Shown here piece after piece: positions 3,401 through 59,140 of a stretch of 64,000 bases of DNA; within the stretch, counting starts at the first letter, position 1; each line of letters begins with the position of its first letter. The position numbers and the translations under genes are program-made. The notes beneath the pieces are model-generated. The model worked only from the letters and a program-made list of their open reading frames with translations. It was not told where the DNA came from and made no database searches. Source of the DNA: Phyllosticta citribraziliensis (Eukaryota); NCBI RefSeq assembly GCF_038025025.1, contig NW_027117344.1:186001-250000 (forward strand), given 5' to 3'.

Positions 3401-3456
3401 AGGACCAGATTGAGGAGAGCACGGGAAAGCGCAAGATCAAGCTGGGCTTGCTGTGA
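415..3456 (+). CDS. DIS3: Exosome catalytic subunit Dis3/Rrp44 (PIN, CSD, RNB and S1 domains)
   Basis: Exons 415-610, 655-1223, 1267-3456, frames checked across both GT-AG introns. Motifs: [19 protein letters not shown] and [37 protein letters not shown]. Confidence 0.97.
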
Positions 3457-3789: not shown

Positions 3790-6400
3790 ACAGGTCTGTC
3801 TGTCTGTCGGCAGACAGGTATGTATGTAGGCATGCGAGCGAGCGAGCGGGCGAGAGGCAGATGAGCGGGTGAGCGCAGCCGCACCAATGCATTTGTCGGT
3901 CAGTCTGTCGTCGCCCTGCTGCGCGGCGGGTGGTGGTGGCGAAGGCTGGATAGATGCGTGCGGCATGACAGGCAGGCAGCAGGCAAGCAGGTATCCGCCT
4001 AGGTACCTCTTGGTCCATTCATCCATCCGTATTCAGTAGAGCAGAAGCATTCGGCTGAAATTTTACATGTCCTTTCCTTTCTCTCTCTCGCGTGCTTTGC
4101 CCGGGCTGCTTCCTCCTCACATCTCTTGGTCTTCCTTTTCTCTTAGCCGACACATACACATACGCACGGCACACATAAAAGTCTTCCCTCTGGTTCTCTG
4201 CGCGTCGTTGCACAAGCTAGATGTCAATGCATCTCTCCGTCCGCCTGTCTGTGTATACGCGCGCCGGAGGGTGGGACAGCCCTCGTGAGTGACGGCTGCC
4301 AAAATGAGGGTATGTGCTGCGTGTGTTCCGAGAGAGAGAGAGACAGCACGCCTTGGCTTGTGCAAGAGGGGTTTGTGGGGATGATGAAGGCGATGATGGT
4401 GCGAGAGGTTGAGGATGGAGAGAGTTTGGACAGTGAGGGAGAGGAAGGGAGTAGCAGTTGATGAAGAAACCCTACCTGTCCAATCAACAAACACGAAATC
4501 TATTGTCCGCCGACGACAGACCTCCCCCTTCCCCCTGCCCCTACCCCTTCCCACCCATTCCCATCCTCGAGCACATCAACCCGTCTCTCGCTGAGCCTCC
4601 TCAAACCACCACGACCAAGAATGGCAGCACAACCAAAAACCGGCCGCAGTCAACTGCTCCCGCTTCGTTACGCGCCGCAGCGCATTGCAGCGCAGCATCT
4701 CGGCTGTACTGTTTGATCGCCGCCGGGTACGGGACAGTGTGTATCGACGGAGGAAGCGGCAGGGGGAGGCAGGGGAGAGAGGGAAAACGTGGGCAGGTCA
4801 AGCCAAGGCAGGGCAGGGCGTGTCGCGCATATGTACAGCACACACTTTACATTAAAACATAGTACCGTACCTACGCGCAGCAGCAGCAGCTAACCGACAG
4901 AGAGCAAGTCAGGAACGAGATAGACGAGCGCGCGGGCGAGAGCGCCGGCCGGCGATGCTGCTGCCGGGGTGATATTGCGATTGGCGAGGTGTCCGAGGTG
5001 GAGAGAGCGCAGACAGGACAGGCATGGTGCGCGAACGCGTGCGAGTGCTCCGTACATACATACATACATACATACCTGTACGTACATAGCCGATGGTGTT
5101 GGCATGGTTTGGGCGGGGCCGCTTGGGCTGGTTTGCTTTTTCTTCATGTACGGCGTGGTCTGCGATGTCCCGCGGTGGAGTGGTGGAGGGGTGGAGACTT
5201 CTGGATGCGAGGGCGTCCGCGTGCATGTGGTGTAGGTAGATTGTCGACGGATCGGATGGCGGGTGTTTGGATGGCCGGCGGGGGCGTGGCTGTGGCTTAG
5301 ATAGATGGACAGGGAAGAGGCGGAGGTTTGTCCGGAGTGGGCTCGCTTGGGTTGGATTGGATGCGGCGGATCAATTTGCTGACAAGAGTCGTCGAGGTCA
5401 TGGGCTATTCTCGCCTCGTCTCCTTGCTCTTTCCCCTGCTGGTGTTGCTCGAGACCTTGACGCTGTGATGGAGAGACGGAGAGACGGGGATTGCGCCGGG
5501 AAGACGACGGGAGGGGGAGGCACGGGAACGAAGAAACCGCGGGCAGCCAGACGGACGCCTCCTGTCGACCGAGTTAATTAGCCAGGGGGTGGTGGTGCGA
5601 TATGAATACCTACTGGGGTAGATAAATGGACGATGATGATGATGTTGACGCTGCTGAGGCATCCAGGCAGGCAGGCAGGCAGGCAAGCACCGAGCGGCGC
5701 ATCCCCCGCGGCTAACAGAAGCAACCCGACGCCGACTGCTGAATGCTGATTGGTGCCGCCTCAACGATTTTCACCGCCTCACCGCCTGGTCGCGCACCCC
5801 GGACTTAACCTTCAGTTTTTTCGGGGGTTCCCCCTTACGACGATCCGGCGGAAAGGGGGCAGCGGCTTATCGTGCGTGCAGTTGCGAAGTGAGATGGAGA
5901 AGAAGAAGACGAAGATAAAAGAGGGTCCGTCTGGTTCGACTCGCCATGACTGACACAGGGCTGAGAATTTGTCACAGTCGCGCTTTGAGACGGTGCCAAC
6001 CCAAGGTCATCCGCCGCGGCCGTGATTGGGCGGCGTCGGGGACTTCATCTAAAAGACATTCCTCGTGGCGACGTCTCAAAGCGGGCGAGGCCGACGAGTT
6101 GATTCTCTCTCTCGCGGAGACGGAGGCGGTGCCCTCAACGGTCGATCTGCACGGGGGTGGGAGTCATGGGGGGGAAATGGGACAATGGGCTGGCTGTGGA
6201 ACATGAGGTGCCTGGTGTGCATTCTTCATTGCTCTGGGCTGCGCGTGACGGCCGACAGGACAGGACAGGACAGGACAGGACAATGGAGGCCAGGAACAGA
6301 AGATGGGATGCGGATGAAGAACAGCCAGCCCGGCTCGCGTGCAGTGAGGTGTGCTCTTTGGCCTCTGCTCCTCGTCACCACCACCACCACCACCACCACC
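3790..6400. repeat. Microsatellite-rich intergenic region: (TACA)n, (CAGG)n, (GACAG)n, (CAC)n, (GA)n
   Basis: Short tandem repeats visible at about 5054-5074, 5664-5684, 6254-6282 and 6377-6401; no convincing ORF. Confidence 0.7.
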
Positions 6401-15047: not shown

Positions 15048-15532
15048 TCACAGAAAGGGATCGTCGGAGATCACGACTGTGTCCTCGCCCGTGAAAGCCG
15101 CCCTTCGCTCCGCCCTTCGCCAGAGTTGTCAGCTCAACGCGCTCTCCCAAATCTCACAGGCCGGGACCAACTTACTCTTCCTCCTCGCGCTTTTTCTCTT
15201 CCACCAGCTCATAGAACGCCTCCGTCATCCTGTCGTAGCGCTCCTCCCACGACCCTGGCATGCGCGCTCCGTGCACACACTCGTTGATGTGGTCTTTCTT
15301 GTCCGTGTCCTTGTTGACGTGCGGCTTCCACATCGTGGCGAGCCAGTAGAGCTCCTCGATTGTGTCTTCGTATGCCTCCCAGCGGATGTCCCAGAGCAGG
15401 TGTGTGTTGCTCGCCTTGCCGAGAAGCAAGTCGATGAAGGTCCCTGGCGGAGAGTTAGAATTGTTGGTCTTGGGAGCGGACGTGAAGCTTACACATGCTC
15501 TCCTTGGGGTTGATGACGTCCCAGTACACCAT
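15048..15532 (-). CDS. Orphan tandem array member 1 (small helical protein)
   Basis: MVYWDVINPKESM-W (split by intron 15492-15444)-TFIDLLLGK...RMPGSWEERYDRM. Lacks intron 2. Last intron starts at 15175; the final exon is less certain. Confidence 0.75.
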
Positions 15533-16814
15533 GGCTTCGGAGTAGATATGAAAGCGGAGGCTGGGTAGAGAGATCGCGAATCAAGAAAGCGAGCTTTTGG
15601 TGATTGGTCACCGTGTATAGATCGCGGGCGGTGGAAGGAGTGGTTTTTGCGAAGTGCGTTGTTGATGTTTGGATCAGGGCGCGATGTTGGACTAGATATC
15701 TGCGGAGCAGTACCGTGGTGCGCGCTGATGCCGACAGGCAACGGGCGGCAAGCACGCGCACCCAGGGAACAATGAACATCTCGCAAAGAATTAACACTTT
15801 CCAAGGGAATTGACACTCGACTGGTTGGCCCCTCGCCGATACCCGCTCGCACCGACCCAGCGCAAACGCCAACACTGCCCTCACTTAACGAGCAAAAGTT
15901 CTATGTGTTATACAAGGTACATTGTTTCTGAACAGAAAGAGTAGACAAAGGGTTTATTTGGAAAGGTCGTTGTCCTGGAATTCATCCTCCCGCCCTCGAA
16001 GCTGGACAGCTTCCATCCACCAAAGGCTGAGCGTAGAGACGCAGAAGCAGAGTCGATCCGTACCACTGGGTGTCTGTACGGCCTACTTGAACAACTGATT
16101 TTCCGCTTTGCTTCTTGCGTTGACTAAGATCGCTTGAAAGGGCCTGGCAGGATGGGTTCGATCACTTACGCGTCAGGACCCAGACACTCCCAGGAACGAA
16201 CGCTGCCTAAACGTGGCGGGGAGTGAGGATGCATAAGAACAGGTACTTGGAATTTTCCTGAGATTTGCGCTTGATTCGTCCCTGAAAACAACGGAACATG
16301 GTCAGAATACGACGAATTGTCCCTTTCTGCCAAACTTCACCATCTTTCGCTTGCAGTTCAAACCTGGTACGCAAGGAGAAGGGTCGAAAAAGCCCTTGAC
16401 ACTGCTTGAGAGCGATTCTGTGGCATGTGATGGCTTTCAGCAGGAGGACCTGAAGGGCGGCGCGGCGGTTCAGCACCAGCAGCTGAAGCTGCAGTAAGCA
16501 AATGACGATGGTTGAACAAAAAAGCATGAATACGACGATAAATGGTCCAGAAACTAGTAGAAGAGGTTGATTGAGGTCAAAGAGCACGTCTAGAAGCGGA
16601 GAGAAGCTCAATTGCAGCAGTGAATGAGTATGTTTGCGTTGAGGCAAAGTGTAAAAAAGGAGTGCCCATTCGCCATTCCCAGAATTCCATTGATGCCAGA
16701 TCCGTGTGAAAGTGTATCTCTTGAGAAGAATCCCCGATTTGTTATTGGACGCCTCCCAGTGGTAAAATTCAAGAGAGGACTGATGGACAAGCGGAAAGAG
16801 GGCAGAATCAACCA

Positions 16815-17333
16815 TCAGTGGTGCGTCCGGCATGAAAGAGCCAACGGTGTAGACTCTTTGGTGGACAAATCTTTGGCAGAACCGTTAGCTTCAAGCTGTC
16901 GAAGAGGGCTGACGACCGAATGATTTACCGCTCTGTGCAACTGCCTGGAAGATCAGGGCGACTCCGAGACGCCTGGCGCGCTGGCAGCGAATCTTCCAAG
17001 ACTCCGGAGTATCGGGGTCGGAGAGTCGGTGAGCCAGGCAAGGGAACATTTCGTCTCCGATGAGTCAGTATCGACACTCAGCACGAGGGGGGTTTTGGCG
17101 AAAGTTCTTACGAGGGGCGGCTTGATTGAGCGGCAAGCGGAGGGCACCGAGCTTCCGACAAACCCACCTGAGGGCCTGGAAGCGGATGGCACCACAGTTT
17201 GGGCCGGCATTCTCGGCGAAAAGGAGCACGCGGTCGATTTTGTCCCCTGTGTGGCTGTCAGTGGAGCTCCGGGGCAGTAGGGCGACATGAGAGACTTACA
17301 GACGCAGGGATCAACCTTCTGAAAGCGAGCCAT
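16815..17333 (-). CDS. Orphan tandem array member 2
   Basis: Introns 17299-17247, 17111-17055 (GAG acceptor), 16928-16871. MARFQKVDPCV-W-DKIDRVLLFAE...H-EMFPCLAHRLSDPDTPESWKIRCQR. Confidence 0.8.
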
Positions 17334-18115
17334 GGTTGCTGTTGAGTGTATTTTCGCTGGGGAGCTGTGTGGAGACGACAGGATGAGAGGTTTTTGGCGG
17401 TGGTGGGCGGTGGTGGGAAGGTATTTATCAGGTGGGCGCATGCCAACGCCGAAGCTTTCTGCGGCGACGAAAGTGTGTTAACCTGCCGGCCAAGACTTTC
17501 GCCAAAATCCAGTACATTAAGCGCCTGCATTTTTCAATGGCTATACTCGAGGAAGATAGTTCCTCGGGCGCAGTTTTCACGGTAAAAGCGGGCTTGAGAA
17601 TGCCTGTCAGAAACCACCCTCTATTCTTCTGCTTGTGAGGTTTTCATGTATAACCTGGGCGACTATACGAAAGGCTAAAGAAGGACTGAAATAGTCTCGA
17701 GTAACGCACAGGGAGCATTCGTCCGCTGTGCCGCACCGCTTCAAGAGCCTCTTCATCGGCGGGCCACGCGCCTGGGGAGCATTCAGCCCTGCGCCGCCCT
17801 CGACCAAATTTATTCCACCATTCAAAGAGAGGAGCGAGCCACCAGGTCCTACGGAGCTTTTGAAAAAGTTGCTTGTCGCCAAACGTATTGACGCTTGAAA
17901 CCCGAACAGACCCTCATTGAAAGAAGTGTGCAACTCAATTTTAGAAGAAAGGAAATCATCTTTTATTTAGAAGCGAGCACGAAGTTTCCAATGCCGTTTG
18001 CAGAAGGTTGCATACGATAGAAGTTTCCGCTCCTGTCCTCCTGCTGAGCCATGGTTGTTGCCGTCATCCTGCCTGTGGTACGGAAGAGTGAGGGTAGATG
18101 CTGTCCCTGAGACCT

Positions 18116-18596
18116 TCAAGGGTGCGCCAGGATCAATTCATCCGATGCTGTTCCAGTGGTTAGTTTGGACGCGTATTCAGGGTTCAAAAGTTGCACCACA
18201 CTTACGAGAGAGGACCGAGATGCCCTGTGAGATCAGAGCCCACGGAAGCCTCATTGTGCCTCGATGGGCATGCTTCCAGACGCCCGGCGTGTCGTTGTCA
18301 AGGGCGCGGCCCGAAATGATCGAACAAGCATTGTCTTCTCCGGTCAGCATTGGCAAAGGTCTCCGAGCTTGAAAGCACTCGCCTGAATTGATTCCCTCAT
18401 TTGTCGGGTTTCCAAGGAATGCTAACGCCCGTATCACGTATGCGAGAGCATCGTGACTGGTGTTGGCGGGAAGCGATTGATCCTCAACATGGTCGAGAAC
18501 TCGGTGAAGCTCGTCCCCTGCGTCGGCGTCAGTAAGGCTCGCAGGAAGGACACACAACTCACAGAGATGGGTGGGCACATCAGCGAAGAGCACCAT
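18116..18596 (-). CDS. Orphan tandem array member 3
   Basis: Introns 18562-18518, 18382-18335 (GC-AG, donor GCGAGT), third from 18205. MVLFADVPTHL-W-DELHRVLDHVE...D-NACSIISGRALDNDTPGVWKHAH. Confidence 0.8.
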
Positions 18597-19193
18597 GACG
18601 CTCAATGTAGAGGGAGGTAGTTGGTGGAGAAGATGAAGATTGGTGACAACAGGCAGGATGTTTGGGCTGTCTACCAATGCGGGCGGTGGCATGCCAACGC
18701 CGAAGTCTCCAGCGAGGAAGGCTTCCAGCCCACGCCAATCGCCGACCGCCGACATCGTAGAATTGCCTTGGAAATTTACACGGGCCTGTTTGGCCTCTTG
18801 GAAACCTATTTGAGAGATACCACAGTCCTCAGCTCCACGCTACTTGGTCGCGGGAGCAACGTTGAATTCTCGTGTTGTCAATGCAAAAGGACTCGGCTTA
18901 ATATAAGACTACATCGCCTTCGATCAGCGGGGAGGGCGGCCATGGACTTCCAAATATTACTGTCACAAGGTGACATCATGTTTCACAAGAAGCAGTCATG
19001 AAGTAGTCCATTGAAAGGAGCAGAAAGAAGCACCAGAATACTTTCTGTTTGAAGCCCCAGATGTTTTGTCCTTCCCACTCCGCCCTTTCACCCATTCCCG
19101 GTCACTGCCGACAAGTTATACGCTCAGTGTGGGCCAGTGAGCAATGAAGAAGCCATCTCCAGATATTTGGGCCATGTCGTAGGGCTGGCCGGT

Positions 19194-19655
19194 TCACTCC
19201 TTTTCAGTGTTGTCAGCTTTAGTCCGTTGGCCGACCAGACGCAATGAATGGAACCAACGTACGAATACGACTGCAGAGATGCCCTGGTGTAGAAAGGTCC
19301 AGTACAGCCAGATCAAGCGACAAAACCTGTCCTTCCATTCCTCTGGCATGTTGTGGTGGAGAAAACGCGTGCGAAGGTCAAAGTGGTGGTCGTCTACACA
19401 CTCCAGTCAGCGCGGGCGAAGATTGGGCAAGGTTGGGAAGTTCTTACAAATCGAGTAACCGTCTAGGAGGATGCCCAGGTACTCCAGCCTCTTGGTGGCC
19501 CAGTGGAGTGCAAAATGGCGCATGCGGTCGGGAGCAAGGCGATCTCCGGCAAAGTCCAAGGCGTCATCAAGCTCGACGACTTGTTTGGACGTCAGTAAAG
19601 CTCGGGAGTACAAGAGTAGAGCAGGAAACTTACACAAATCGACAGGGAGAGCCAT
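19194..19655 (-). CDS. Orphan tandem array member 4
   Basis: Three introns (first 19633-19580). MALPVDL-F-VELDDALDFAGDRLAPDRMRHFAL...Y-DHHFDLRTRFLHHNMPEEWKDRFCRL. Confidence 0.8.
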
Positions 19656-20956
19656 GGTAAAGAGCGAGAGAAGATGCGGCCAGATTTTCTTGGTGGTGCG
19701 GATTGAGAGTCTGGTGTTGTCTTGGATGAGACAACAAAAGGTTAGGTTGGCCAGGCGGAGGACCGAGATTCTGTTGTTGTGGTTGGAGGTGCGCCGACGC
19801 CGAAGTCAATCGGCGCGGACGGCACGCTTGCCCACATGCGCCGGCTGGCGATCAAGTCTCGCAGGCCTCAGAAATTGAAGTTCGAAGTGTTAAAACCCGC
19901 AAGATACTGTAGCAGCTGCGGGTGTGGCTTGAAAGGAGTCTGCCCCTGTGATTGCTCGACAAGAGTACAGTACTATAATCGATACAATTCGACATGAATT
20001 ATTCCTGTATTGCAAATCCCTCACTTTCAGTCTCCTCTTTTGACCATCCAAAGCTGCTAAGTGCAAGGTCATGATCAAGAAATAATCATGCAATGTCAGT
20101 TCAAATCTGTCGGGTTTCTACGTCAGAGGATGGGGGAACTCACCTCTGCTTCCTCCAAAAGATTGCACTCGGACTCTCTGAAGATACGAGTGAATCAGAA
20201 GCTAGAATCGTTGTATCAATGGTCTTTTGCACGGTTTTCAGTTGATTGTAGGACAAGAGGATAGGGAAAAGCACGAATCTCATCAAAGCATTAGGAAGCC
20301 GTGCTTGGAGAGACGGTCAGCAGCATGGATGAAGAGATCTCGAGTGTAAATCAAACAGACGACGTTGGATTTGAGTTGTTTGTTGACAGGACATGGAGCT
20401 CGCCAGAAGTGTTGGCTCAGGCCGTCGTGGGCCGAAAAAGAGAAGGATAGAGATTCTCACGCCGCCACGGATATCTTAGACGACGGGAAAGAAAACTGCG
20501 CCCAGGGAGCGGTCGTCTGTTGTTACATTGATGCTTAAGGAGGAGCCATCCGCTATCACGTACACGTCCAGAGAGCCATGGTTCATTGCCGCGGCGACAG
20601 AGTCCCACCTCTTTCGACCCCCGCGACAGCAGCCGCTACAAGACACTTTAACAAGGCTGATACTAGGGTGGCCACGAAGTAGGTTCGAAAACTTTGATTC
20701 AACTTTTGATACCTTTGGAAACCACCAGTGTAATCCTCCTTCGCGCTTCCGTTTGTCAAGATCTCCAACAATTCCGTGCTTCTGTAGTGAAGGGCCTTCC
20801 TTGCCGAAAGTTATCCTGTTTTTGTTCTAAGACAGAGCCGAGTGGAAAAGGGAATCTCGGAGGAAGCGGCCTATTCATGATCTGTATGGGGGATGTCAGC
20901 TCAAAGAAGCGGGCACTGGGGTTATTTGCGAGAGTAAACTTACGCCTTCGGGTGTG

Positions 20957-21338
20957 TCATTCCCCCGCTCGAGCTCTTTCGAGAAGCTTCGAGACGCGCA
21001 TCATGCGCCGAAAGCGCCGCTTCCAGGCGGCCGGGGACGCCGGATCGTTGTAGCGCTCGATCATGTCCTCGGCAGGATCGTCTTCCCCAGTCAGCGGGGA
21101 CGGCATGAAGAATTCGGGACGCTTACAGTCTTCGCCTCGCACTCTAGGCCTTCCGATCTCCTCCATCTCCTCCATCGCCAATCGGAAACATTGTAGGCGG
21201 TCCGACATGCGGCGAGACCGCTGCTTGGCCATCTTCAGCCAGTTGTCGATGTCGTCATCTTTTCTGTGGTCAGCCGGGTACGAGTTCTGACGGTGGAGCG
21301 TTGTGCTTACAAAGACCTTGAGTGAGGAAGCCGAGCAT
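20957..21338 (-). CDS. Orphan tandem array member 5
   Basis: MLGFLTQGL-Y-DDIDNWLKMAK...Y-DPAEDMIERYNDPASPAAWKRRFRRM. Intron 2 at 21126-21082; the third intron (GTAAGT) lies just after the stop codon. Confidence 0.8.
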
Positions 21339-21816
21339 GTTTGTGGTGGAAATGGTAGAAGGTAGGTGGTGGTTGGTAGTGTTCAGTGTTTACATTCGGC
21401 GCTGGAAGTGCCGTGCCAAAATGCTGCGCCGGCGACGAAAAGCAAGAGGCGAGCGCCTGCGCCTGTCGGCGTTCGGGGGGCGTGCGTTTCATGCACCGCC
21501 CGTGGGAGCGTTCATGAGCGAAGAGGGACGGCATTGTTTTATTCACGGATTCTGGACAATGGTTTTGTTTTCTGCCGTGAGTTTGCTAGTAGAGATCTAT
21601 ATTTCTCCCTCAGCTTGACCCGCAGCAACGAGTCTGTAGCTGCAGTGTTCTTTATACCGCTCATACGCACTCAATGATCCTGCCAGGTTCCAAAAGCTGA
21701 GGACGGCGAGAGCACGAAAGGGTGAGGGAATCGCGTGTCCTTCAAACGAAGCTGGAAGGCATCAGCTCATGCCATCGTCTCCGGAATGCCAGCTGGAGCC
21801 TCACCTTTTCCGCCCT

Positions 21817-22188
21817 TCAGCGGATTTTATTCTCGCTCAAGTATATGAGACGCCTTGCGCGCTCCTTCCAAGCCTCCGGGGTACGCTCATCCTTCATCCT
21901 AGCCCAGAAGTCGACCTTGGGATGATCTGCCTCAGTTAGTGGAGATCACGGAGAGCCCAGTTGTGCCTCACAGTTCTCAGGAACGACAGTGGGACGTCCA
22001 ATCTTGGTCAACATGCGCAGAGCATAGTTCCAGAGCGTTCGCTGGTTGTTCTCGGGCTTCTCCGCCGCGTCCATCATCTTGTCGATTGCGGTATCTGTCA
22101 AAGTCAGCTGCAGCTCAAAGCGAGAGGATAAGGAGAACGGACAGATGCCCGAGGGAACGTTGTAGGTGCCCATGTTTGGAGTGTTCAT
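21817..22188 (-). CDS. Orphan tandem array member 6
   Basis: MNTPNMGTYNVPSGI-Y-TAIDKMMDAAE...Y-HPKVDFWARMKDERTPEAWKERARRL. Intron 1 at 22142-22095; third intron after the stop. Confidence 0.8.
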
Positions 22189-22867
22189 GGTTGTTGAAGG
22201 CCAGGAGTTCTGTGTTCGCAGTTCGTCGGATGTTGTATTGTAGTGGGAGTCAAGGCACGTTGCGAGGTTGTGCCAACTTTAAGAGCCCCACGGTTGCCAA
22301 TGCGTTGTGCCATCAGCCTTGGCATTTCTGGCTGTCAAAACTACAAAATTGACACAGAAAGTGTTAACTCGACCCTTATATAAGGAATTTGTCCGCGGCA
22401 GCGTTAGAATTTTGGGCGCAAACTTAATTACTTGTGACGACCATGTCTTCGATCTTCATATCTGATTTCATTCGGCAGCTGCAAGCAAAGCAAACGACAA
22501 GGTGCGGCGAACGGGCTTTAGCCACCAAGAATCTGCGCTCCGCGATTCAAATCGATCGCTGCAGCAAGCAAAGTTGCAAAGTCTCAAGTTGCATTCGGAA
22601 TGATCTTTTTGGCAGTGACTTCAGGGTCTGCGGTATTGGAACAAGTAAAGCATTCAGGGGCTCACGAGGAGCATTCAAGCGCGGCATCGGCGCCGTGAAG
22701 GTGACCTCTGCCCCAAAAGACGGAAGAGAGGAGGGTCTGCAGCCCGAACAAAAGAAGACTGTGATCGCATTCTGTTTCTATCTGTGCAGAAGCGGCTGTG
22801 TTTGCGCCGAATGAGTCCTCCCGAGCGATTGCTGGCCCATGTTGTGAAAACTTCGCCAAAGAAAAGT

Positions 22868-23324
22868 CTAGATCGGCTGGTAGCGAGGGGCTGTCAGCTC
22901 AACCATCCGGAGAATGCTGCACCGGAACGAAACCTACCCTCAGCGTGATAGTGAGCTGAAACCTGTATCCAGCCTCAATCAGGACCAAGAAGAAGAGTTG
23001 TTCGAATGCCTGATGCCACTGATGAGATTCACGCCTGGCGAGGTGCGCTCCACGCAGAAGCTCCCACGGACGCTCTGGCTCGGTCAGCGGCGAAAGAACG
23101 AAGAAGGGAGTGGACACTTACCGATCATTTGGTCCAGAATCGTTGTACTCAAGTCGCAGAGGTCGGTCGCAATCAATACAAGAAGGGACCTCCTGAAGGC
23201 ACTCGAAAAGCGTCGATCGTGGGCAAGGTTGATGTGAATGTTGAGGAGGTCATCTTTTCTGCGGTCAGTGTTTCCCCTTGAGGGCTGTGAATTATTCCAG
23301 AGACTTACATAGCAAGGCTTCCAT
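22868..23324 (-). CDS. Orphan tandem array member 7
   Basis: MEALL-Y-DLLNIHINLAHDRRFSSAFRRSLL...E-RPWELLRGAHLARRESHQWHQAFEQL. Three introns with GTAAGT, GTAAGT and GTAGGT donors. Confidence 0.75.
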
Positions 23325-23927
23325 CTCTCCGAGTTCTGCCTGTAAGTGAGTGGCCTGTAGAAAGGCTCTTTCGAAACTCTGCAGGAGTTGCAGTTGGTTG
23401 ATGGCGAGGTCGAAGGAAATATTGTAGATATGCAGCGGTGGTTTAATGCGTCACGGCCGACGGACCGAACTGAACTGAACTGAAGACAAATATGGCTGGT
23501 GAGGCAGCCGTTTTTCGGAGCAGAGGGAAAGCAACGAAGAAAGTCTGCCTGGGAATATGCCTGGTGGGAAAAAGGACGCGCTGGACTCTGACAGCGGGAG
23601 TAGAAAGAAGAGTCCCTCAATCCTCACGACGCGCATTACATCCAACGACATCGGGCTTAGGGGCTGCTTGTTGGTGTTGTGGGTGTCCAAAAGAGCGCCC
23701 TGCAGATTGATTGCTACTCTGTTGTCCCTCGTCTTCTGTCTTCTTCTACTCTGCCATTGTACTCCTGAACGAAACTCCCGCTCCCGGCCCCGCGGTGGAC
23801 TGACTTCGTGAGATATTTGACGACAACGAGATGGCGGCAGACAAACGATCTGCGAAAACTGTCAGCCAGAGTCCTAGGCGCCGCAAAAGGGATTCAAAGC
23901 TACCCTTCTGCCGAAGCAGCAAGGCTA

Positions 23928-24350
23928 TCAAGCCTGGGTCCGAGCCAGCTCCAAAAAGTACCGCCTAAAAACGCGGACGAAGCGCTCATTCCAGACCGGA
24001 GGCTCTTGTCCGCTGAAGAAACGGTCCTTGATCTGGTTCCACACCGAGTCTTGCTTGATGAGCGCAGCTCACTTCTCCAGAGTTCGAGAGCCTTACCGGT
24101 GCTTCCTTCCTGCGGGCCTGGTCCAAGTCTCCACAGCGTGATCATGGCCATCTCCAGGAAACGTCGCCGCAGCGTGACGGGAAAGTTCTCCCGCTCGATG
24201 TGCATCATAAGGTTGTCGAATCGTTCGTCTTTCCGGCTGTCAGCGGTGGTTCAGCTGCAGGCAAGGATATCGAGACATACAGTGAGTGGCCTCGCTTTCC
24301 ACAGGAGCGTCTGCCGAGGGGGTGATTGACGCAGGAGTATTGTCTTCCAT
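23928..24350 (-). CDS. Orphan tandem array member 8
   Basis: MEDNTPASITPSADAPVESEATH-Y-ERFDNLMMHIERENFPVTLRRRFL...D-SVWNQIKDRFFSGQEPPVWNERFVRV. Both coding introns use AAG acceptors. Confidence 0.8.
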
Positions 24351-24519
24351 GTTGGGCTGCTTGAAATGGTGATGTTTGGTTGTCAAGGTCGTTTGGGGTA
24401 GAGTTGTTTGGCCAAAGACGCAAAACCTGGAAGATTCGAAGTTGGAGTGCCGGCGCTGCGTGGACATGGTGGAAGTGAATGCCCGACCGATGGAGCTGAT
24501 TTTGCCCCTTTGGGTCTAG

Positions 24520-24937
24520 CGTGGCTCAGTTCCAACGACCGAGCCTCCGCAGAATCGCGCCTCCGCAGCAGGCCATGGAAACAATGTGATTCTGTGGTGC
24601 TCTTTGAAAAAGACGCTTGTTGTTCTTGCTCTTGATCTGCAGACTTCCGCTGGCTGGACGGCGCAAGATGGCAGTATAACATGCTCACTGCTTGCACTGA
24701 CTTCTCGTCCCACCCCATTATGTTCCAAAATCTTGATTCTCCATGATTCTGGTACTAGCTGTTGCATGCGTACTGCCGTAAAAGAGCGCCTTCGTCCAAA
24801 AGCGAACGACTGGTCTTGAGCAAACAAAGAGGGCCAGTGATTGTGACAGCCGCACGGGCAGGGACGAGGTACTTCGATGGCCTTGTTCACATTATTTCGT
24901 GTGAGATCTGCGAGGGCTTGCATTCTTGAGCAGACAT
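24520..24937 (-). pseudogene. Probable degenerate array member 9
   Basis: Same upstream layout (GCCAACGC motif near 25054, C/A-rich leader, ATG at 24937) and fragments such as VPESWRIKIL, but I could not build a clean spliced model. Confidence 0.35.
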
Positions 24938-25320
24938 GACGAGTGGTTGAAGACCTGGAGTACACTCTGCGGGTGGGTCTGCCTGTTGCGAAGGTGGTGT
25001 GGTGGGTGTTGTTGCGGCAGAGTTCAATGAACAAACAGCGCAGACGCGGCCGGCGCCAACGCGATGAAAATCGACAAAATTCCACCCGCTGTATTGAAAA
25101 TCTCGCAATTCTCATTTGAGGTGCTACTTGCACGAAACCTCTTGCCCCTCTCCTCCCCATGGTCCAGTCCTGCCCGGCGCAAACCCCCAGATTTATGCTC
25201 GCTCCCCAGTCGCGCCACTGGTCCCTCTCACCCGCATGCGAGCTGGGAGCATTCGACTGCTGATCAAAGAAGTCTTAGCAAAATACTGCACCGGCAGAAA
25301 GCGCAAATCAGCCATACCTC

Positions 25321-25736
25321 TCATTCTCCCTCCGCCTCGATGAGCGGGCCCCACCCCATGTTGACAAAGTGGCGGAGCGACACAAGGCGAAAGAAAAGAG
25401 CCCTCCAAGCAGCGTCGGTGCGGGCGGTCGGGAACATCTGTTCCAGGAGGTCCCAGGAAGCGTCTACTTCAGTTAACGGGAGCTCATTGTTTTGCTGGAG
25501 GCCTAGGCTAAGCGTACCGATGCTGCTGCGTTGTGTGGCCTGCGTGTTGTACAGCGCGAGCGCTGCTTGGTCGAGGAGGCGGCGGCGCTGGGCTTGGGTG
25601 ATGCCGCGGGTGCGCTCGAGGAAGGAGAGGAGCGCATCGACGACGTTGTCTGGGCTGCGGTCAGCGTTGGTTTTTGGGGGATGAATCCGGACCTACAGCC
25701 TGGGTTGGTGCCGTTCGTAGGAGGCTGTGAAGCCAT
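25321..25736 (-). CDS. Orphan tandem array member 10
   Basis: MASQPPTNGTNPG-Y-NVVDALLSFLERTRGITQAQRRRLL...D-ASWDLLEQMFPTARTDAAWRALFFRL...GWGP. Third intron donor 3 nt after the stop. Confidence 0.8.
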
Positions 25737-26456
25737 CGTGGTCGCTGCTGCTTGAGGGGAACAAGAGTTGTGGAGGAGGATGTGCAAGGACAGATTTTCA
25801 GAGGGCAGATGTCGGAGGCGGTTAGAGAAGCTCTGTTCTTTGTGAAGGAGATTGCCAAAACCTGGAGGTTGGAAATAATGTACAGCGTGTGGCAGGCGAC
25901 GCTCACACACAAAGTGAATACACTGAAGTGAATCTATCTCTTTAGGGTTACTACACAGCTATTCACAACCTCAACACCATCCAGAAGAACAGGAATGATG
26001 ATCAAGATCACCTGCCCTACCCTGGAGGCGTCCTACTCAAAGACACTCAAAAAATTGCAAAAAGCAGCAGGAAACAGCGGCGGAGGGCTGCTGCTTTGCG
26101 CCTGCACTCGCTACAGGGTTGAAATGAGGTAAATCGCCTTTTGTACCCTCACCAAACAAGGCACACAAAGTTTCCAGGGAAGAGTTAACGCTGAGCTCAA
26201 CTACCATCAGAGTCCGATGTATCTCGAGAAGCGCTTGATTTTTGCTATGCCTCATGTCCCTGCCCTATCTGTTGAACTGTTTACGCGTCCACCTGAGACC
26301 CCCCTCCCTTTCCCCATCCCTTGTTCTGTCTGTTGGTCTCCGGCTTGAGGCACGAGTTGGAGCGCGTGCCGAGCGTGCGAGAGGCCACAGCGCGTCTGCC
26401 AGAAGCCCAAGTCAGCCAAAACCCCCAAAAACGCAAGATCCTCTCTTACTCCTCAA

Positions 26457-26846
26457 TCAAGCGTTGTACAGCTCCCAGAGACGGTCGTAGAACACCTCCC
26501 ACTCCTTGGGAGTGTCAGGCATGATCGACTCGTTGTACAGGTCGACCCAGACCCCGCGGTACTCCACCTCTTGTCCGTTCCGGAGGGTCGCCAGAGTCTT
26601 GGTCTCGACGCTGAAGATGATGGTCTGCGTATTGTGCGCCAGGTTGAGAGCCTCCGCGGCCCGCGTGATGACGTACTGGCGACGGTGCGCTGGAAGGTCG
26701 GGGTGCTCCTCGATGAACTTGATCAAGAAGTCCACTTCGGCGTCTTCCTCCATGTCAGCGATTTGTGGGAAGGGGAGGGCGGCAGGGGACTCACACCAGT
26801 GCGAGGTACCGGCCGCGGCAGGGCTGAAGGAAGTGCTGCAAGACAT
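26457..26846 (-). CDS. Orphan tandem array member 11
   Basis: Intron 1 at 26794-26744. ...SHW-Y-AEVDFLIKFIEEHPDLPAHRRQYVI...RGVWVDLYNESIMPDTPKEWEVFYDRL. No intron 2, with an insert of about 16 aa in its place. Confidence 0.8.
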   Translation of the reverse strand: MSCSTSFSPAAAGTSHWCESPAALPFPQIADMEEDAEVDFLIKFIEEHPDLPAHRRQYVITRAAEALNLAHNTQTIIFSVETKTLATLRNGQEVEYRGVWVDLYNESIMPDTPKEWEVFYDRLWELYNA

Positions 26847-27672
26847 GGTGATTTCGGGTATACGGAGGTCGAGGTGTACTGAGGGTGGTCTGGCGAGGAG
26901 TTGTTGCTTAGGAACTGCTTTGATGAGACGTCAGCGCATGATCTCGGCGAGCTTCTCGCAACTGGCTGCTAACCTTGCGTCTGCTGGTGTTCAAGCTGGA
27001 AGCGTTGCAGCGGTTGAGTGCGTCGATGTAAGAGAAGAAGAGAGGAAGTGGAGAGTGCAGTGTTTGGTGCTCGCAAGCAAAAGAGCGGCAGCGGAGGGTT
27101 ATATAGGCATACGCCAACGGCGCAGGCGCTCGGCTACGACAATATACTGAACTGAACAGGCGCCTATTTCTCCAAGAAGAATTAACACCGCGACCGCCCG
27201 CGGACAGGATTTCCCAAAGCTTAACTTGTCGTGAGAAGTGTTAACTTTTGGCTTCCAACTTGCCCGCTTCGTGCGCAAAACAACGAGGGAAGAGAAGCAT
27301 GTTATAGATAGAAGGACTCGGCATGGCAAAAATTGATAGCACGTTGAAAAAGTCATTGAGGGACAAGACGGCAGAGGCTCGTCTTGCAGCGGAAGCCGAA
27401 GGTGAGAAATTCCAGCGTTCGCGGTCAGAAGCCAGAAGAGACGACATGTGGACGCTTAGTACGCATTTTCTACAATGAGGTTGTTCTGGGACAATGCCCG
27501 GCTTTTGTCACTGATGTTTGTAACTGACGCTCCAACAAGGAAGCAGAAGAAGATGCCATTGTTTGAAATTCAGGCCCGACCCATGCTGTCTACCAGAAGC
27601 TCTCTCCCAGGCCCCGTTCCTCCAAGGGTTGCTTGCATGAACTCTCAGATCATTCCCGGACATTGTGTGCTC

Positions 27673-28202
27673 TCAGCGGCCAGAGACGAGACGGCTATTC
27701 AGAAAGGTCAGTTCAAGAGACAAGAACAGCGCTCCAAGCCCAAGTCAAGCTTACCTTGCTTCCTCATCCAGGCACATGCGCAGCACCCTGGCGCGGAGGA
27801 CCAACAGCTTCCAAGAGTCATCATGCTCATTGGTGAGGCTCAAGGCCTCAAGAGCATCCCACACCTCGTCTGCCAAACAAGTCAGTCCAGCTCCCCACTC
27901 CCTCCACAGAAAGGACTGCATCATACCTTCGAACAAGTACGGACACGTCCAGTCCTTGTTGATGTGGAAGAGCTCCATGGCGACACTAAAGAGCAGCCCT
28001 TTGCGCGCGCTGTTGCCGCTCCAAGGGTAGAGCTCGATGACCCTCAATGCTCTGCCCAGCTCGTGGTCTGCTTGGTGGTTAGCTTTGGCAAGGTTCTTGG
28101 TGGGTTGGGGACGTGGGGTGACGTACAGGCGTCGCGCAAGTGGTCGGTGGTTCCAGTGGGGCCGTCGATTATCATCAGGCTTGAAAGGGGCGCGGAAGAC
28201 AT
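27673..28202 (-). CDS. Orphan tandem array member 12
   Basis: MSSAPLSS...HLRDA-Y-HELGRALRVIE...D-EVWDALEALSLTNEHDDSWKLLVLR. Intron 2 at 27926-27870; three introns in total. Confidence 0.8.
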
Positions 28203-28809
28203 GGCGTTGAGAGAAGTGTTTAAAGTAAAGTTGGTCAAGAGAAGTTGATGAATGAAGGTCGGTCGAGGGAGGTTGAATGGAAGAAGTCGAAGAGGTGGGT
28301 GGTGGTAGAAGATGTCGTGCCGGCCGGGCGACGGAGCATCCAGAATATATACGGCGCACCACTGGCGCAGGCGCAAAGTGAACACTTCAAAGTTAACACA
28401 CCAAAATAACACCCCAAAGTGAATCTGACTAATTCTTCATTACCGCACACACACAATTCATAGGTAAGAAAAGAGAAGACCCAGAGATCTCGTGTCTTGC
28501 GCCCCCTACTTTGTGCGGTGCGAACTCACTCATAATGATCCAATGCAAGACTCTGGAGAAAGAAAAGCCGCTGACGAGAGGCGGAGGAAGATGCCATTGT
28601 GTTGAAACCCAAGCCTGGCCGACGCTGCTCCCCAAGTGACCATCCAGTATCCGCTTCGCCATTCTTTTCCAAGCAACCAGGGCCCGCCATGACCGTTCAA
28701 TGCATGTCCCGAGCAGCGAAAACCGGCGGCAGCTACTTCAGAGAAAGAGAAGAGCGGACCGAAGCCACTGGACCAACCGAAAGCCCGCAGACAAGTCAAG
28801 CCCACGCCC

Positions 28810-29279
28810 TCAACATCCCTCCTCACCCGGACCCCATCCCAAGTAGACGCAATAGCGCAGCGAACTCATGCGATGGAGGTGATTCGTCCAAAACGGGCCC
28901 CTGTCTCTGCTCTGGCTCAGGCATTACAGCGTACTCCAAAGACGATCTGGCAGAGGAGTGAGTGCGTCAGCGAGATCGAAGCCCGCCCGCCCGGCCGGAG
29001 GCACGGAGGCCAAGGTGGGGAAGGTAGGTAGATGTACCGACGCCCTCGTACTGAGTGTTGCTGACCATGTTGGCGAGCGCCAGGGCGAAGTCGTCGAGGA
29101 TGCGCTTGCGCTGCTGCGTGGTCATGGTGCGGCTCTGCTCGACGAGGCAAATCATGTTGTCTATGGCCAAGTCTGAAGGGCGTGCGGTCAGCGTGGCACT
29201 TCTGCTTGGAGGGGCGGGAACTCCAGTCGCGAGTGATGGCCGTGGCGGTCGTGTTGGTGGGTTGAGTGACGATAGCCAT
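28810..29279 (-). pseudogene. Orphan tandem array member 13, pseudogene closest to member 10
   Basis: Intron-1 donor reads T|GGAGT instead of T|GTGAGT (29224), and there is an in-frame TAA at 28926-28924. Otherwise aligns: LAIDNMICLVEQSRTMTTQQRKRIL...D-RLWSTL*CLSQSRDRGPFWTNHLHR...GWGP. Confidence 0.75.
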
Positions 29280-29790
29280 GATGGACAGTTGAGGGATGTA
29301 TATCGAGTTTCAAGTGCGAACGTAATTGGTGGAGTGGTGGTTGAAAAAGAAGCTTCAAAAACCAGAGACGATGCTTCAAAAGCACAAGGCATGCGGTGCA
29401 CCACCAGTTCGGCTCCGGTGCAAGCGCAGACTCAAACGCAGATACAAAATGGTTGGCGCCAAAGTGAGTGAGTGCTCCAAAGTAAATGCCGCAAAAAGAA
29501 TCTTACTGATGCAACTGCGGCTCTCACCGCTCTCGGCTTGCAGGAATAGTTTGCTCGCCCGCTCAGAATAGACAGTGACTTCAACGACGCGAAAGTGTGG
29601 ACGAAGATGGAGTGGACGAGTCGATGGGAAGAAAGAGAGAGCTGGCAGCCGGCGCACCACCATGGGCACAGAAAAGATGAAAGCCGCCCTACGAGCAGCG
29701 GCAAAGTACCAAAGCAAAAAAGAGCGAACAAACCCTCCCCTTTCCCCCATTCCCCCCAATCCTTCCCCATCCCCAGATCAAAACGACAAC

Positions 29791-30406
29791 CTACAACCCA
29801 TACGCAAACCCCCTGCCCACAGCTCCCGTATCCACAGCGACATCAATCACATAATAGCACCGCTCGCGCCAAATATCCGCAACCTCCGGCTTACGGACCT
29901 TGCGGCGCAGCTTGCGATACACGCCGTTGACGCGCTGCGGGTTGAGCTGGCGGATGAGGTAGCCTTTGCTGAGGTGCCGCGAGAGGTGCGCGAGGTGGGA
30001 TGCGGTGCGTATGATGTCTGTGGTGGAGGGTTAGAGGGAGTGAGAGATTATGGGGGGGAAGGGAAAGGGGGACACACCGACTGTCACCTCATAACGCATC
30101 TTCGCCATGCTGTCGAGCTCCAGCGCCGCGAGGAGTAACCACCACTTGCGCCACTTCAGCGTGTTTCGCCGGTCGGCTGCTCTGTCGAGGCGTTCGTCGA
30201 TTTTGCGGTCTATACACAGCGCAGTTGGGTTCAGCGCTGGTTGTTGGAGTAGAATGGAGCGGAGGGAAGGGTTGGAAGTGGAGGGAGAGGAAGAGATGGA
30301 CGAAGAAATGAAGAAGGCAGCAGGCAGTAGGCAGCAGCGTACACATCCCCGGCGTGTCGAAATCATGAAAGTAGCGCGGCAAGTGGCCAGGGGGAAGGTT
30401 AGGCAT
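29791..30406 (-). CDS. Orphan tandem array member 14 (longest, terminal member)
   Basis: MPNLPPGH...PGM-Y-RKIDERLDRAADRRNTLKWRKWWLL...V-D-IIRT...KPEVADIWRERCYY. Has the same two phase-1 introns splitting Tyr and Asp. Confidence 0.75.
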
Positions 30407-32005
30407 GATGGAGTGATTGTAGCGGTCGTATGTCGTATGTGACGTCTGTCTCTATGTCCGTATGTCTGTATGCGTGTCTGTCTGTCTGTTGATGCGAGCG
30501 TGCGTGCGAGCGTGCTGCCGATGCGCAAAAAATGTCCGTTGGCGATATGTTTGTACGTATGCAGCAAAAGAGCGGATGATAGTGGTCGAGTTGAAGTCGT
30601 CGCGTCGCGTCGCGCAGGAAGAAGAGAGGGAGGGCTGCGAGGACGTCGGTGGACAGGGTGAGGTAAGCGCCAGACACACTTCTTCGCACGCCCATCGCGA
30701 CCGGAGCGGCGTGGGAGAAGGAGGAGGCGGGCACGTGCGGTGAGGAAGAAGATGGACGGCAAGGCTCCTGCTACGTTGGAAGACGCGGTTGCTTCTTGTA
30801 CGTTTGGCTGCCACCACGACTGTCAACGAAATCGACCCACGAAGTCCGTCAGAGAGCAAGTTGCCGATGCCAAACCGCTCTAACACCGCGGCATCATGAG
30901 CACTGGGCCGCAAGTCCCGCTCACTTACGCAGCGAGGTTCCTGTCTTGCGGAGGGGAAGCAGTGTAGTGCTCGTTCACAGAGGAGCGACGGGGCTGCTTT
31001 TATATCTCCATCTCGCCGCGTGCCACGCTGCTTGCTCGTTTTCGATCGCTGCTAGCAATGGCCGAGGATCCTGATTGATGATTGAATTGACGAAGGTGGT
31101 TTGGGTCAGCGACAGCGACTATGACAGCAACTGAGCGCAAAGCCCACGCTCACTCGCGCGCTGCTGGCACGTAAACGCGCGAAAGAACGGTCGTATTTCG
31201 GACGATAGTCTCTGAAAAAGACGGTGTGATGCATGCAGCATGCAAAGCTAGATCTACTCTTGAAGACCTGTCCGGGTATAGACAAGCTTGCCACGCCACG
31301 ATTCGTTCGTAGTTGCCATGTCGGCAAATCTCCATCAAGCTGCAGTCATAATTGGAAATGGGGAAACGAGGAAACAGAAGAACGATGGACAGACGACACT
31401 CTCATCTACTACTTGGGTACAAGTACATCATCTACAGTAACCAATCACTGCACCGCGCCCAGCAGTCCTGGAACAGAGGACAAGCAGCCAAGCCATGGAT
31501 AAGCAAGACACACACACGAGGGCAACGGACGAGGATAAAGACGGCAGAAAAACTTTTGGGTTTTTGTATGCGAGCAAAAGCAAACGACAGACTCCTTTCC
31601 TTGCTGATGAAGCTATGTCTGAAGCGACGAGCGCGAGACGGAGAAAAAAGCCAACTTGTGTTTGACAGAGCCAAGATGAAGGAAAAAAAGGACACCTACT
31701 CCCACTTTTGTTGCGTGCCGCAAGAGCTTGAATGGTACCGCCGTTATTCCGTCCAGACTAGACGAAAGGAAAGAAAAGGAGAAAATCAGATTCTACCCGA
31801 CTCCTTGAAAATGATTACAGACCGGAGTCTGTCATGTGCGAAACAGCTGGTCTGTCGAGTGTGACGGACATGCCGAAGCCCGTGGAGAATTGCTGTGGAA
31901 AGTTCAAAACGCTCGATTTCGACGGTTGCACGGAAAACTTTTCGATCGGATCAATGCAAGCAGAGCTCAAATGCAAGAGCGGACAGGTGGTGTGGTGCGA
32001 TGCGT

Positions 32006-58180: not shown

Positions 58181-59140
58181 ATAATGGTGTCGTCTGCGCA
58201 CCAACAGCTGCACATCAAAAAGAATGGTGGCTATGCCGACGTCGGAGCTTTTCTGGATGCAAAAATCACGGAATAGATGCTCGGCCAAGGAGTACCAGAT
58301 GGTCGGAATCCAAGAAGTCACGATGCGCCGCCCATGGAGGTCTCGACTCACCACCGCTCCAACCATCAAATGCTGCCCATGTATTTACCGAATCACAGCG
58401 ACATCGTCTCAGTGTGCAATCAGTCGAAAAGATGAGGGATCGCAGGCAATGTTGCTCTGGGTCCAGACTTCCATGTTCAACATAGCATTCTTCACAAATC
58501 GCATCTACTGTCGATCAATTGCAAAGTCTCGAACATTCCCCACAGAAAACTGGGATGCTCCAGCGCACGATCGGCTGCCGAACAATTCGATTGATTATTG
58601 AAGCCATTGCTCCCACCATGGCTCCTGTCGTCATCGTTATCCGGCGTGATTCAAGAGGCCTGAGTCGATGCAATGGACAAGCCATGGCAATTGTCCCTTG
58701 CGCGGTACACTGCGCGGACTTTCTGGATACAGTGAAGCTACACATTTGTTTTTGGCTTGGTTCGTTCCTCGTTCACTTGGCAGCCGCCGCCGCCATGTGA
58801 TGAACGGCGGGAGAGAAGCGTATATCATTCTAGCCTTTGGCGGCATGCCTCGAATTGGCACAGAGACTCCCGGGCAACCACTTCCAGTCCATCCGGGTTT
58901 TACGTCCGTCTAGTCGCCGCTACAAGTCTTGGTGGATTATAAGAGAGCGCCCAGAGTGGTCAGTGGTGGAGCAGAGCAGAACCGAAGCAGAGCGCATCCG
59001 CCTTCTGCAGCTCTTCTCTCACTCTTTCTTCTTGGCTTTCTGTTGCCGTTCTTTTTCGTCTCTCTTTTACAGTCACTCACTCAAAGCACATCTTTGCCTG
59101 CGTTGATTTCACCCCCAAGTTTCCAGTCGCTTCGCCCAGC

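Follow-up and report, generated by a model that had tools for sequence, protein, structure and literature searches.

The array and its exon-intron blueprint

On the minus strand of a 64-kb stretch of Phyllosticta citribraziliensis DNA (contig NW_027117344.1, positions 186,001 to 250,000; the whole stretch is referred to below as the window), the segment at 15.0-30.4 kb is occupied by a tandem array of small genes built on one exon-intron blueprint. Reading of the minus strand at 14.8-30.5 kb, with script-checked gene models, resolved 13 units, comprising 12 intact genes and one probable pseudogene, U02. The units are labelled U01 to U12 and U14, the label U13 being unused (Table 1). The intact units encode proteins of 92-140 aa in uninterrupted frames, and neighbouring units are separated by ATG-to-ATG distances of 850-1801 bp, all on the minus strand; an earlier note on this DNA had given a spacing of roughly 0.6-1.8 kb. 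That note had counted 14 units, a number reduced to 13 by a six-frame profile scan, tblastn with 25 relatives from other species, and a signature scan, which revealed no further member in the 64-kb window. Two larger gaps, at ~19.7-20.9 kb and 15.5-16.9 kb, contain no unit by profile scan or tblastn. An ATG followed by T/GTACGT near 20.58 kb (here and below, the slash marks the exon-intron junction) may be what had been taken for the 14th unit; by eye, it serves as a first exon in P0003, a fused deposited model.

Exon 1 is 16-76 nt long and ends one base into a codon. Intron 1 lies in phase 1 in all 13 units and begins at T/GT in 12, the only exception being the T/GG of U02, and the codon that it splits is aromatic throughout (Tyr in nine units, Trp in three, Phe in one), as the earlier note had described for 12 units. 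The sequence xx[ILVF]D, which was said usually to follow the split codon, is present in 10 of 13 units, with G, N and H replacing D in U03, U07 and U11, respectively. Exon 2 measures 123-141 nt (132 nt in six units), and a second phase-1 intron, expected some 40-47 codons further on, was located after 41-47 codons in 11 of the 13 units; U04 and U14 do not have it. Introns 1 and 2 span 45-60 nt, apart from two outliers of 91 and 133 nt. Among the donors of the 24 modelled copies of these introns, 23 are canonical (22 GT and one GC, in intron 2 of U11) and the GG of U02 is the exception, while a CTRAC-type branch site can be seen by eye 10-25 nt ahead of the AG in most introns. The Trp reported exactly 19 residues after the second split codon is present in all but one of the 11 units that have intron 2, U02 being included when read through its stop.

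The remaining case, U01, carries this Trp at +49 owing to an insertion of ~30 residues ahead of the Trp motif; with an intron 1 of 133 nt, U01 is the most divergent member of the array. U04 has an intron 1 of 51 nt and an extra ~20 residues between its two halves. U02 is broken twice, by the GG donor of intron 1 and by a TAA that falls in frame at codon 8 of exon 3; past this TAA, the frame retains both the Trp at +19 and a C-terminal motif resembling that of U05 (phmmer against U05, E = 9e-11).

The earlier note's proposal of a third intron, placed at the stop codon or directly behind it, holds for a large part of the array: its signals are strict in U03, U07, U09, U10, U11 and U14 and looser, as judged by eye, in U04, U05, U06, U08 and U12, but none was seen in U01 and U02. 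In U03 and U14 the TAA stop lies inside the donor (G/GTAAG.), so that the protein ends there if the intron is retained and gains a short tail if it is spliced; in U14, splicing would continue the frame to a stop at 15050-15048. The U09 intron is located within the 3' untranslated region. Third-intron donors are used by deposited models of two species (P0003, P0009 and P0004): P0009 uses the optional intron of U14, and P0003 ends like the intron-3-spliced reading of U11. An intron placed at the stop codon could thereby give rise to alternative C-terminal tails.

The rarity of this arrangement depends on how much of it is required. The combined signature, consisting of a T/GT donor, a branch site, an AG, an aromatic split codon and xx[ILVFM][DNEHG], occurs at 11 minus-strand sites, all of them in the array; the plus strand and the remaining 48 kb of the minus strand have no such site. 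A looser scan for GT/GC...AG introns with a Trp at +19 recovered nine array loci versus seven loci elsewhere, counting both strands. Rarity is thus a property of the full signature and not of the loose pattern alone. The GC content at codon positions 1/2/3 of the units is 59/42/73%, the corresponding values for the Dis3, Mak21 and TrpD open reading frames (ORFs) of the window being 59-61/37-44/67-79%, and introns and intergenic DNA have GC contents of 56% and 52%.

Pairwise phmmer comparison joins only two sets of units, U02/U03/U05/U06 and U08-U12 (U08 against U09, E = 2e-13). A common profile, which the earlier note had named as a test of the family, nevertheless emerged: profiles built with one unit left out score that unit at 14.6-44.6 bits in 13 of 13 cases, whereas 200 shuffles per unit never exceeded 9.6 bits. 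On these profile scores, all 13 units are judged to be homologous and to form one family. The observation is genuine and lies well beyond chance. At the DNA level, the absence of evident similarity between units was borne out, repeats being no longer than 33 nt. The earlier note had also remarked that a large tandem array is unexpected where repeat-induced point mutation (RIP) is active. Its indices in the array (TpA/ApT 0.58; (CpA+TpG)/(ApC+GpT) 1.29) are like those of the flanks and show no RIP signature, and no stretch of DNA that the paralogs have in common today is long or similar enough to serve as a target.

Predicted fold and comparison with known families

Structure prediction was based on alignment A3, which holds contiguous translations only: U14 and U04, which naturally have no intron 2; U03, U05, U09 and U11 read through intron 2, with the intron-encoded residues in insert columns; and single exons of the remaining units. 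It agrees with the alignment of the spliced proteins, and paralog identity within it is ~10-25%. The AlphaFold model of the 89-residue core of U14, made with A3 (model 1), reached a predicted local distance difference test score (pLDDT) of 93.2 and a predicted template modelling score of 0.80, with helices at residues 2-11, 17-38, 48-58 and 63-88. A second model, of the full-length P. citrichinensis orthologue of U06 (P0010; alignment A6), reached a pLDDT of 83.8 and has matching short-long-short-long helices, its first ~19 residues, which correspond to the exon-1 part, being of low confidence. The predicted protein is thus a compact four-helix domain behind a short, variable and disordered N-terminal tail encoded by exon 1.

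In the alignment of 38 units from all species, 37 rows cover the Trp column, and all 37 have the Trp. Helix 2 contains a conserved Arg (34 of 38) and Leu (35 of 38), helix 1 an Asp (27 of 38) and a Glu, and helix 4 the motif [TS]-P-x-x-W-[KR]-x-R-[FY]-x-R-L, whose T-P-x-x start appears to resemble a helix capping box. These positions (the aromatic residue with Asp/Glu, the Arg/Leu pair and the W box) are probably of the kind that holds a helical bundle together.

No signal peptide was found by a rough hydrophobicity test, as distinct from a dedicated signal-peptide predictor, in line with the earlier note. The highest mean Kyte-Doolittle value over 19 residues is 1.51, below 1.6, and there is no transmembrane segment by this measure; within the first 35 residues, the most hydrophobic 10-residue window falls in helix 1, and not in exon 1, for most units. 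The proteins contain 0-5 Cys with no conserved Cys column, again as had been noted, and their isoelectric points range from 4.5 to 10.2. Taken with the predicted four helices and the lack of a described family, these features support a non-secreted, four-helix-like family of about 100 aa that has expanded in tandem, much as the earlier note had characterized it. An internal duplication of exons 2 and 3 was also considered. MAFFT stacked the two exons, each with a short-long helix pair, but hhalign gave a probability of 0.8% (E = 0.07), and the idea, attractive on structural grounds, has no support from the sequence.

The family had not been recognised from the sequence, and searches against known families and folds led to the same result, with no Pfam family, PDB sequence or solved fold above noise. 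Among 14 window pieces and 14 full-length relatives, none matched Pfam at the cut-off, the best E value being 0.019 and the weak matches falling to unrelated families. The best hit of a sequence-profile search of the PDB (RGS7, E = 0.048) was judged to be chance, and Foldseek found no PDB match at E <= 0.001 for either model. Exhaustive structural comparison with VIA-align gave a best Z of 8.6 for both models, which is ordinary for helical models without a true match; the recurring entries were MIT domains, a Legionella protein of unknown function, a mouse hypothetical protein and the polyphosphate kinase N-terminus. The best ESM Atlas values, 0.81 and 0.83, are at a level that shuffled proteins reach one third of the time, and phage-integrase SAM-like N-terminal domains, which appeared among the ESM Atlas matches for P0016, were not trusted as a lead.

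Two of the folds that come to mind deserve comparison. The MIT domains (katanin p60 N-terminus, 5lb7; Vps4, 2v6x; MITD1, 4a5x) resemble the array domain in size and antiparallel packing, and these entries, Legionella lpg2328 (5wd8) and the mouse entry 2gnx align with both models at Z 7.2-8.6 and a root-mean-square deviation of 2.7-4.4 Å over 70-83 residues, which is within the range of noise for helical models; several of the MIT entries fall at Z 7.2-8.3 with both models. However, MIT is a three-helix bundle, whereas the array domain consists of four helices of alternating length, and no MIT profile matched the window pieces at E <= 1 or the full-length relatives at E <= 5. HeLo and MLKL-like 4HB proteins, a comparison suggested in the earlier note, are, like the array proteins, helical and non-secreted, and the fungus that carries the array may well have allorecognition systems. 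No Pfam family of this kind matched the same pieces and relatives at those thresholds, and none is among the 50 best structural rows listed per model or the listed Foldseek rows, although a family outside those rows may still match. Unlike HeLo systems, moreover, the array proteins stand alone at ~100 aa, and scans of the window found no NLR or prion-forming partner.

Relatives, deposited gene models and array history

An exhaustive hmmsearch of 1,835,955,588 representative proteins returned 23 matches at E <= 0.001, of which 20 are real relatives and three are artefacts. The artefacts (P0001, P0019 and P0020, of 3017, 796 and 383 aa) are translations of satellite repeats with E values down to 1.5e-49, summed from up to 26 weak matches, and they illustrate how multi-stretch scores in such a search can mislead. 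Together with their listed cluster members, the 20 real relatives include 26 named proteins, which are confined to six species of Phyllosticta (P. citribraziliensis, P. citrichinensis, P. citricarpa, P. paracitricarpa, P. citriasiana and P. capitalensis), and three unnamed ones (P0022, P0023 and P0029). Every named relative is labelled a hypothetical or uncharacterized protein. In a word-indexed protein search, U14 matched nothing and alignment A3 matched only two proteins. As far as the databases show, the family appears restricted to Phyllosticta at the sensitivity of a profile, and relatives too diverged for a profile may exist. Full-text searches and the accessible portions of PMC9073689, PMC6859488 and bioRxiv 10.1101/2020.04.14.040725 yielded no description of the family; the supplementary orthogroups of PMC9073689 may list the genes as unique to Phyllosticta. 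PMC6859488 also states that transcriptomes had been sequenced for seven genomes.

The array had been called hidden, which is only partly apt, since GenBank already holds hypothetical-protein models for it; several of these, however, fuse two to four units, and some units are apparently unmodelled. Four P. citribraziliensis records are identical to the window letter for letter and include the fusions U01+U02, U03+U04 and U10+U11, and a fifth covers U14, splices the third intron and adds a long extension that is doubtful. U05, U07, U08 and U09 probably have no model in that record, because the fused models and that of U06 are consecutively numbered. Judged from these records and searches, the family is undescribed and without a Pfam entry, its genes being deposited in GenBank, with faulty models, under the name hypothetical protein. 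In P. citricarpa and P. citriasiana, the array members carry consecutive accession numbers, and the array is therefore syntenic there.

In a maximum-likelihood tree of the 38 units from all species, nine units (U03, U04, U05, U06, U09, U10, U11, U12 and U14) have 1:1 orthologues in other Phyllosticta, mostly with strong support (up to 100/100; 99/99 for the U04 orthologue in P. citriasiana), although the long branches of U01, U03, U07 and U08 leave their placement unsure. The duplications that produced these nine units are therefore older than the split between the species. Orthologue identity is 89-95% to P. citrichinensis, as for U06 (95%, P0010), U12 (92%, to the second half of P0004) and U10 (89%), and 29-66% to P. 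citricarpa or P. citriasiana, as for U10 (66%) and U05 (64%) against P. citricarpa and U09 (56-57%) against both. At least two units of P. citricarpa and P. citriasiana have no counterpart in the window. Along the array, similarity drops with rank distance (Spearman -0.56, a value reached in 0 of 5000 permutations), and the best partner of most units is a neighbouring unit, which points to stepwise local duplication. The sequence comparisons thus indicate that the array grew stepwise before the citrus-associated species split and has gained or lost a few members since.

The earlier statement that the family is diversifying quickly does not stand as worded, given nine units with 1:1 orthologues and duplications that predate the species. 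The family does, on the identities above, evolve fast between species. A neighbouring orphan ORF is only 48% identical to its P. citriasiana counterpart, so that no clean baseline for the rate is available. The accessible part of a preprint on Phyllosticta mating-type loci (bioRxiv 10.1101/2020.04.14.040725) gives amino-acid similarities, across the citrus-associated species, of 53-62% for MAT genes and 70-99% for most of their flanking genes; by this yardstick the family would be among the faster genes, in a comparison that is only rough, the measures being different. Between paralogs of the window, synonymous divergence (dS) is 0.8-2.5, which is saturated, and nonsynonymous divergence (dN) is 0.7-0.9.

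Genomic surroundings and interpretation

Ordinary genes lie on both sides of the array (Table 1). Among 81 other ORFs of at least 110 aa that were scanned (of 166 listed), none had a Pfam domain at the cut-off (E <= 1e-4). The segments at 30.5-51 kb and 3.5-12.5 kb are GC-rich and contain many ORFs of at least 110 aa in which no Pfam domain was found; the array therefore sits within a wider block without recognised domains, with housekeeping genes at its edges. A link to the mating-type locus was considered and rejected, as the flanking genes named in the accessible part of the preprint (SAICAR synthetase, MCP, CIA30, APC5, CoxVIa, APN2, PIM and S9) are not among the domains of the window.

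Table 1. Units of the array and other features of the window (coordinates in the window; leave-one-out profile scores in bits)
Feature	Position	Strand	Structure or remark	Protein	Leave-one-out score
U01	29791..30406	-	exons 30406-30343, 30209-30078, 30017-29791	140 aa	14.6 (shuffle maximum 3.3)
U02, probable pseudogene	28812..29279	-	exons 29279-29225, 29172-29038, 28946 onward		
U03	27695..28202	-	exons 28202-28127, 28067-27927, 27869-27751	111 aa	17.3
U03 third intron	27754-27695	-	donor overlaps TAA stop		
U04	26457..26846	-	exons 26846-26795, 26743-26457; no intron 2	112 aa	18.6
U05	25321..25736	-	exons 25736-25697, 25649-25518, 25463-25321	104 aa	36.1
U06	23928..24350	-	exons 24350-24281, 24228-24097, 24049-23928	107 aa	36.4
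U07	22877..23324	-	exons 23324-23309, 23253-23122, 23074-22899; intron 3, 22937-22877	107 aa with intron 3 retained, 97 aa when spliced	17.3
U08	21817..22188	-	exons 22188-22143, 22094-21972, 21926-21817	92 aa	40.6
U09	20882..21338	-	exons 21338-21311, 21258-21127, 21081-20957; intron 20943-20882	94 aa	44.6
U10	19194..19655	-	exons 19655-19634, 19579-19448, 19393-19194; intron 3, 19262-19200	117 aa unspliced, ~96 aa without intron 3	36.5
U11	18148..18596	-	exons 18596-18563, 18517-18383, 18334-18177; intron 3, 18205-18148	108 aa	34.2
U12	16891..17333	-	exons 17333-17300, 17246-17112, 17054-16891	110 aa	37.1
U14	15048..15532	-	exons 15532-15493, 15443-15172; no intron 2; optional intron 15175-15115, donor overlaps TAA	103 aa; 124 aa if the optional intron is spliced	19.7
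Dis3/Rrp44	1258-3456	+	flanking ordinary gene		
MFS transporter fragment	12.6 kb		flanking ordinary gene		
Mak21/Noc1	51.9-54.5 kb	-	flanking ordinary gene		
Anthranilate phosphoribosyltransferase (TrpD)	55.3 kb		flanking ordinary gene		
30-nt element	17427-17456, 18678-18707, 19778-19807	-	~100-130 nt upstream of the ATGs of U12, U11 and U10 only		

Several smaller features were recorded in the upstream regions and spacers. The 30-nt element (repeat family D5/D8) was re-found in two of its three copies with no more than three mismatches, versus 0 expected by chance, and its copies at U11 and U12 each include an upstream ATG in frame, whose use would lengthen the protein by 32-36 residues. No 7-mer or 8-mer is common to at least six of the 13 upstream regions, and the best 6-mer reaches p = 3e-4, uncorrected for the 4096 words. 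Directly upstream of the U01 ATG, at 30440-30500 (minus strand), lies a short imperfect run rich in ACAGAC/ATACGA. A 23-nt repeat occurs at 27540-27562 and 28578-28600 (minus strand; copies 87% identical), in the spacers after U03 and U02; it contains an ATG and Ala-Ser-Ser-Ser-Ala-Ser codons and may be a relic of a duplicated spacer or a small upstream ORF.

Outside the array, the minus-strand ORF at 44168-45616 (483 codons, no Pfam domain) is the fast-evolving orphan neighbour mentioned above; it has 99% identity to a portion of a 723-aa hypothetical protein of P. citribraziliensis. A plus-strand ORF at 58943-64000 is still open where the window ends and spans at least 1686 codons; Pfam gave it a single signal, to the baculovirus PEP C-terminal family (28 bits against a cut-off of 38), which is probably due to low complexity. 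A TGG trinucleotide repeat at ~6375-6400 (minus strand) would encode eight consecutive Trp in one frame.

The explanation that best accounts for these observations, and that we consider slightly better than an even bet as a whole, is that of an old, genus-restricted tandem array of non-secreted helical proteins that probably act as protein-binding modules. Its structural and evolutionary part is held with high confidence. Its functional part, although the best-fitting reading of the predicted structure, is put forward tentatively: the proteins would be small intracellular modules for protein binding or regulation, every paralog having a partner or specificity of its own, while surfaces and tails vary freely. 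This reading is suggested by the rigid core, the free surfaces, the disordered N-terminal tail, the optional C-terminal tails and the absence of an export signal.

Several points weigh against it. The type of fold and the pattern of conservation, which are the sole basis for a binding function, would also fit a structural or stress protein, and the conserved Arg/Lys face of helix 4 may combine with acidic residues in helix 1 into a functional site, for instance for phosphate or nucleic acid, instead of a structural salt bridge. The alignments behind the AlphaFold models are shallow (19 and 28 rows) and consist mostly of the paralogs themselves, with four rows holding intron-encoded residues in insert columns. 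In addition, the pseudogene and the variation in copy content between species suggest that some members may be dispensable.

Among the alternatives, the least improbable, though still unlikely, is that the units encode structural or protective proteins for particular stages (pycnidia, conidia, ascospores or stress), with copies kept for dosage and not for specificity. Small, hydrophilic, helical proteins in tandem copies of similar gene structure could well be co-expressed, and the 30-nt element common to U10-U12 would fit this idea; however, paralogs at ~10-25% identity in A3 are too divergent for a dosage role, the isoelectric points are spread from 4.5 to 10.2, and the 13 upstream regions share no k-mer beyond multiple testing. 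Distinctly unlikely as well is an effector-like role, in which the proteins would be secreted unconventionally or delivered to the host in support of a plant-associated lifestyle. In being genus-specific, small, fast-evolving and clustered, the family is like many effector families, and the accessible text of PMC6859488 describes the genus as living in citrus tissue as endophytes and pathogens. Against this stand the absence of a signal peptide-like segment and of a Cys pattern, the presence of the array in endophytes and pathogens alike, and its location in a core region that is not repeat-rich and bears no RIP signature. The best-known orphan tandem families of fungi are secreted, Cys-rich effector clusters in repeat-rich regions. 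The Phyllosticta array resembles orphan tandem families of filamentous fungi in that its members are same-strand neighbours derived from local duplication, are seen in one genus only, encode domain-free hypothetical proteins and vary in copy content between species. It differs from the Cys-rich effector clusters in its lack of a signal peptide or Cys pattern, its position between housekeeping genes, its strict three-intron blueprint and its mostly old 1:1 orthologues.

Genetic conflict or recognition, the interpretation offered in the earlier note, would make the proteins toxins and antidotes, spore killers or allorecognition factors that diversify in an arms race; at present this appears improbable, more so than an effector role. 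Fungal meiotic drivers and killers such as wtf of fission yeast, Spok of Podospora and rfk-1 of Neurospora are lineage-restricted and fast-evolving, sometimes multi-copy, and some of them are small; alternative products from one gene are a recurring theme among them. The array family is likewise lineage-restricted, multi-copy and arranged in tandem, it varies in copy content between species and includes one pseudogene copy, and its third intron at the stop could yield two isoforms. Its orthologue identity of 29-66% to P. citricarpa/P. citriasiana may be set beside the similarity of the MAT genes in the accessible part of the preprint (bioRxiv 10.1101/2020.04.14.040725), which is in a similar or higher range, as a rough comparison. 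However, the nine stable 1:1 orthologues, the setting among Dis3, Mak21 and TrpD in a GC-rich region and the 89-95% identity between sister-species orthologues speak against it, and an unrelated orphan neighbour diverges equally (48%). No transmembrane segment of the wtf type, no nuclease or kinase domain of the Spok type and no two-gene pairing pattern was found, and the syntenic orthologues mark the array as not mobile, unlike the drivers.

A bolder proposal, for which the odds seem poor, is that the array constitutes a genus-wide intracellular repertoire for recognition, akin to immunity, in which each paralog would sense or neutralise a different partner (variants of an endogenous toxin, a mycovirus or a non-self factor, for example), the intron at the stop codon would act as a switch for two alternative C-termini, and the fold would be one without a solved representative. 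That the units are no real genes at all, and represent chance ORFs or decaying relics picked up by predictors, is hardly credible: one unit is indeed a pseudogene, and the deposited models are inconsistent and often fused, but GC at the third codon position is of the coding type, splice signals are intact in 12 units, open frames are kept in orthologues of six species, the family profile is significant and the fold predictions are confident.

An old tandem array has thus been kept across a genus that includes citrus endophytes as well as the citrus black spot pathogen. With the exon coordinates reported here, fused or skipped gene models of several Phyllosticta genomes could be corrected. The array would be of much greater interest if a role in conflict or immunity proved right. 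As a conserved array of non-secreted, fast-evolving small proteins, it offers a tractable case for the role of lineage-specific genes.

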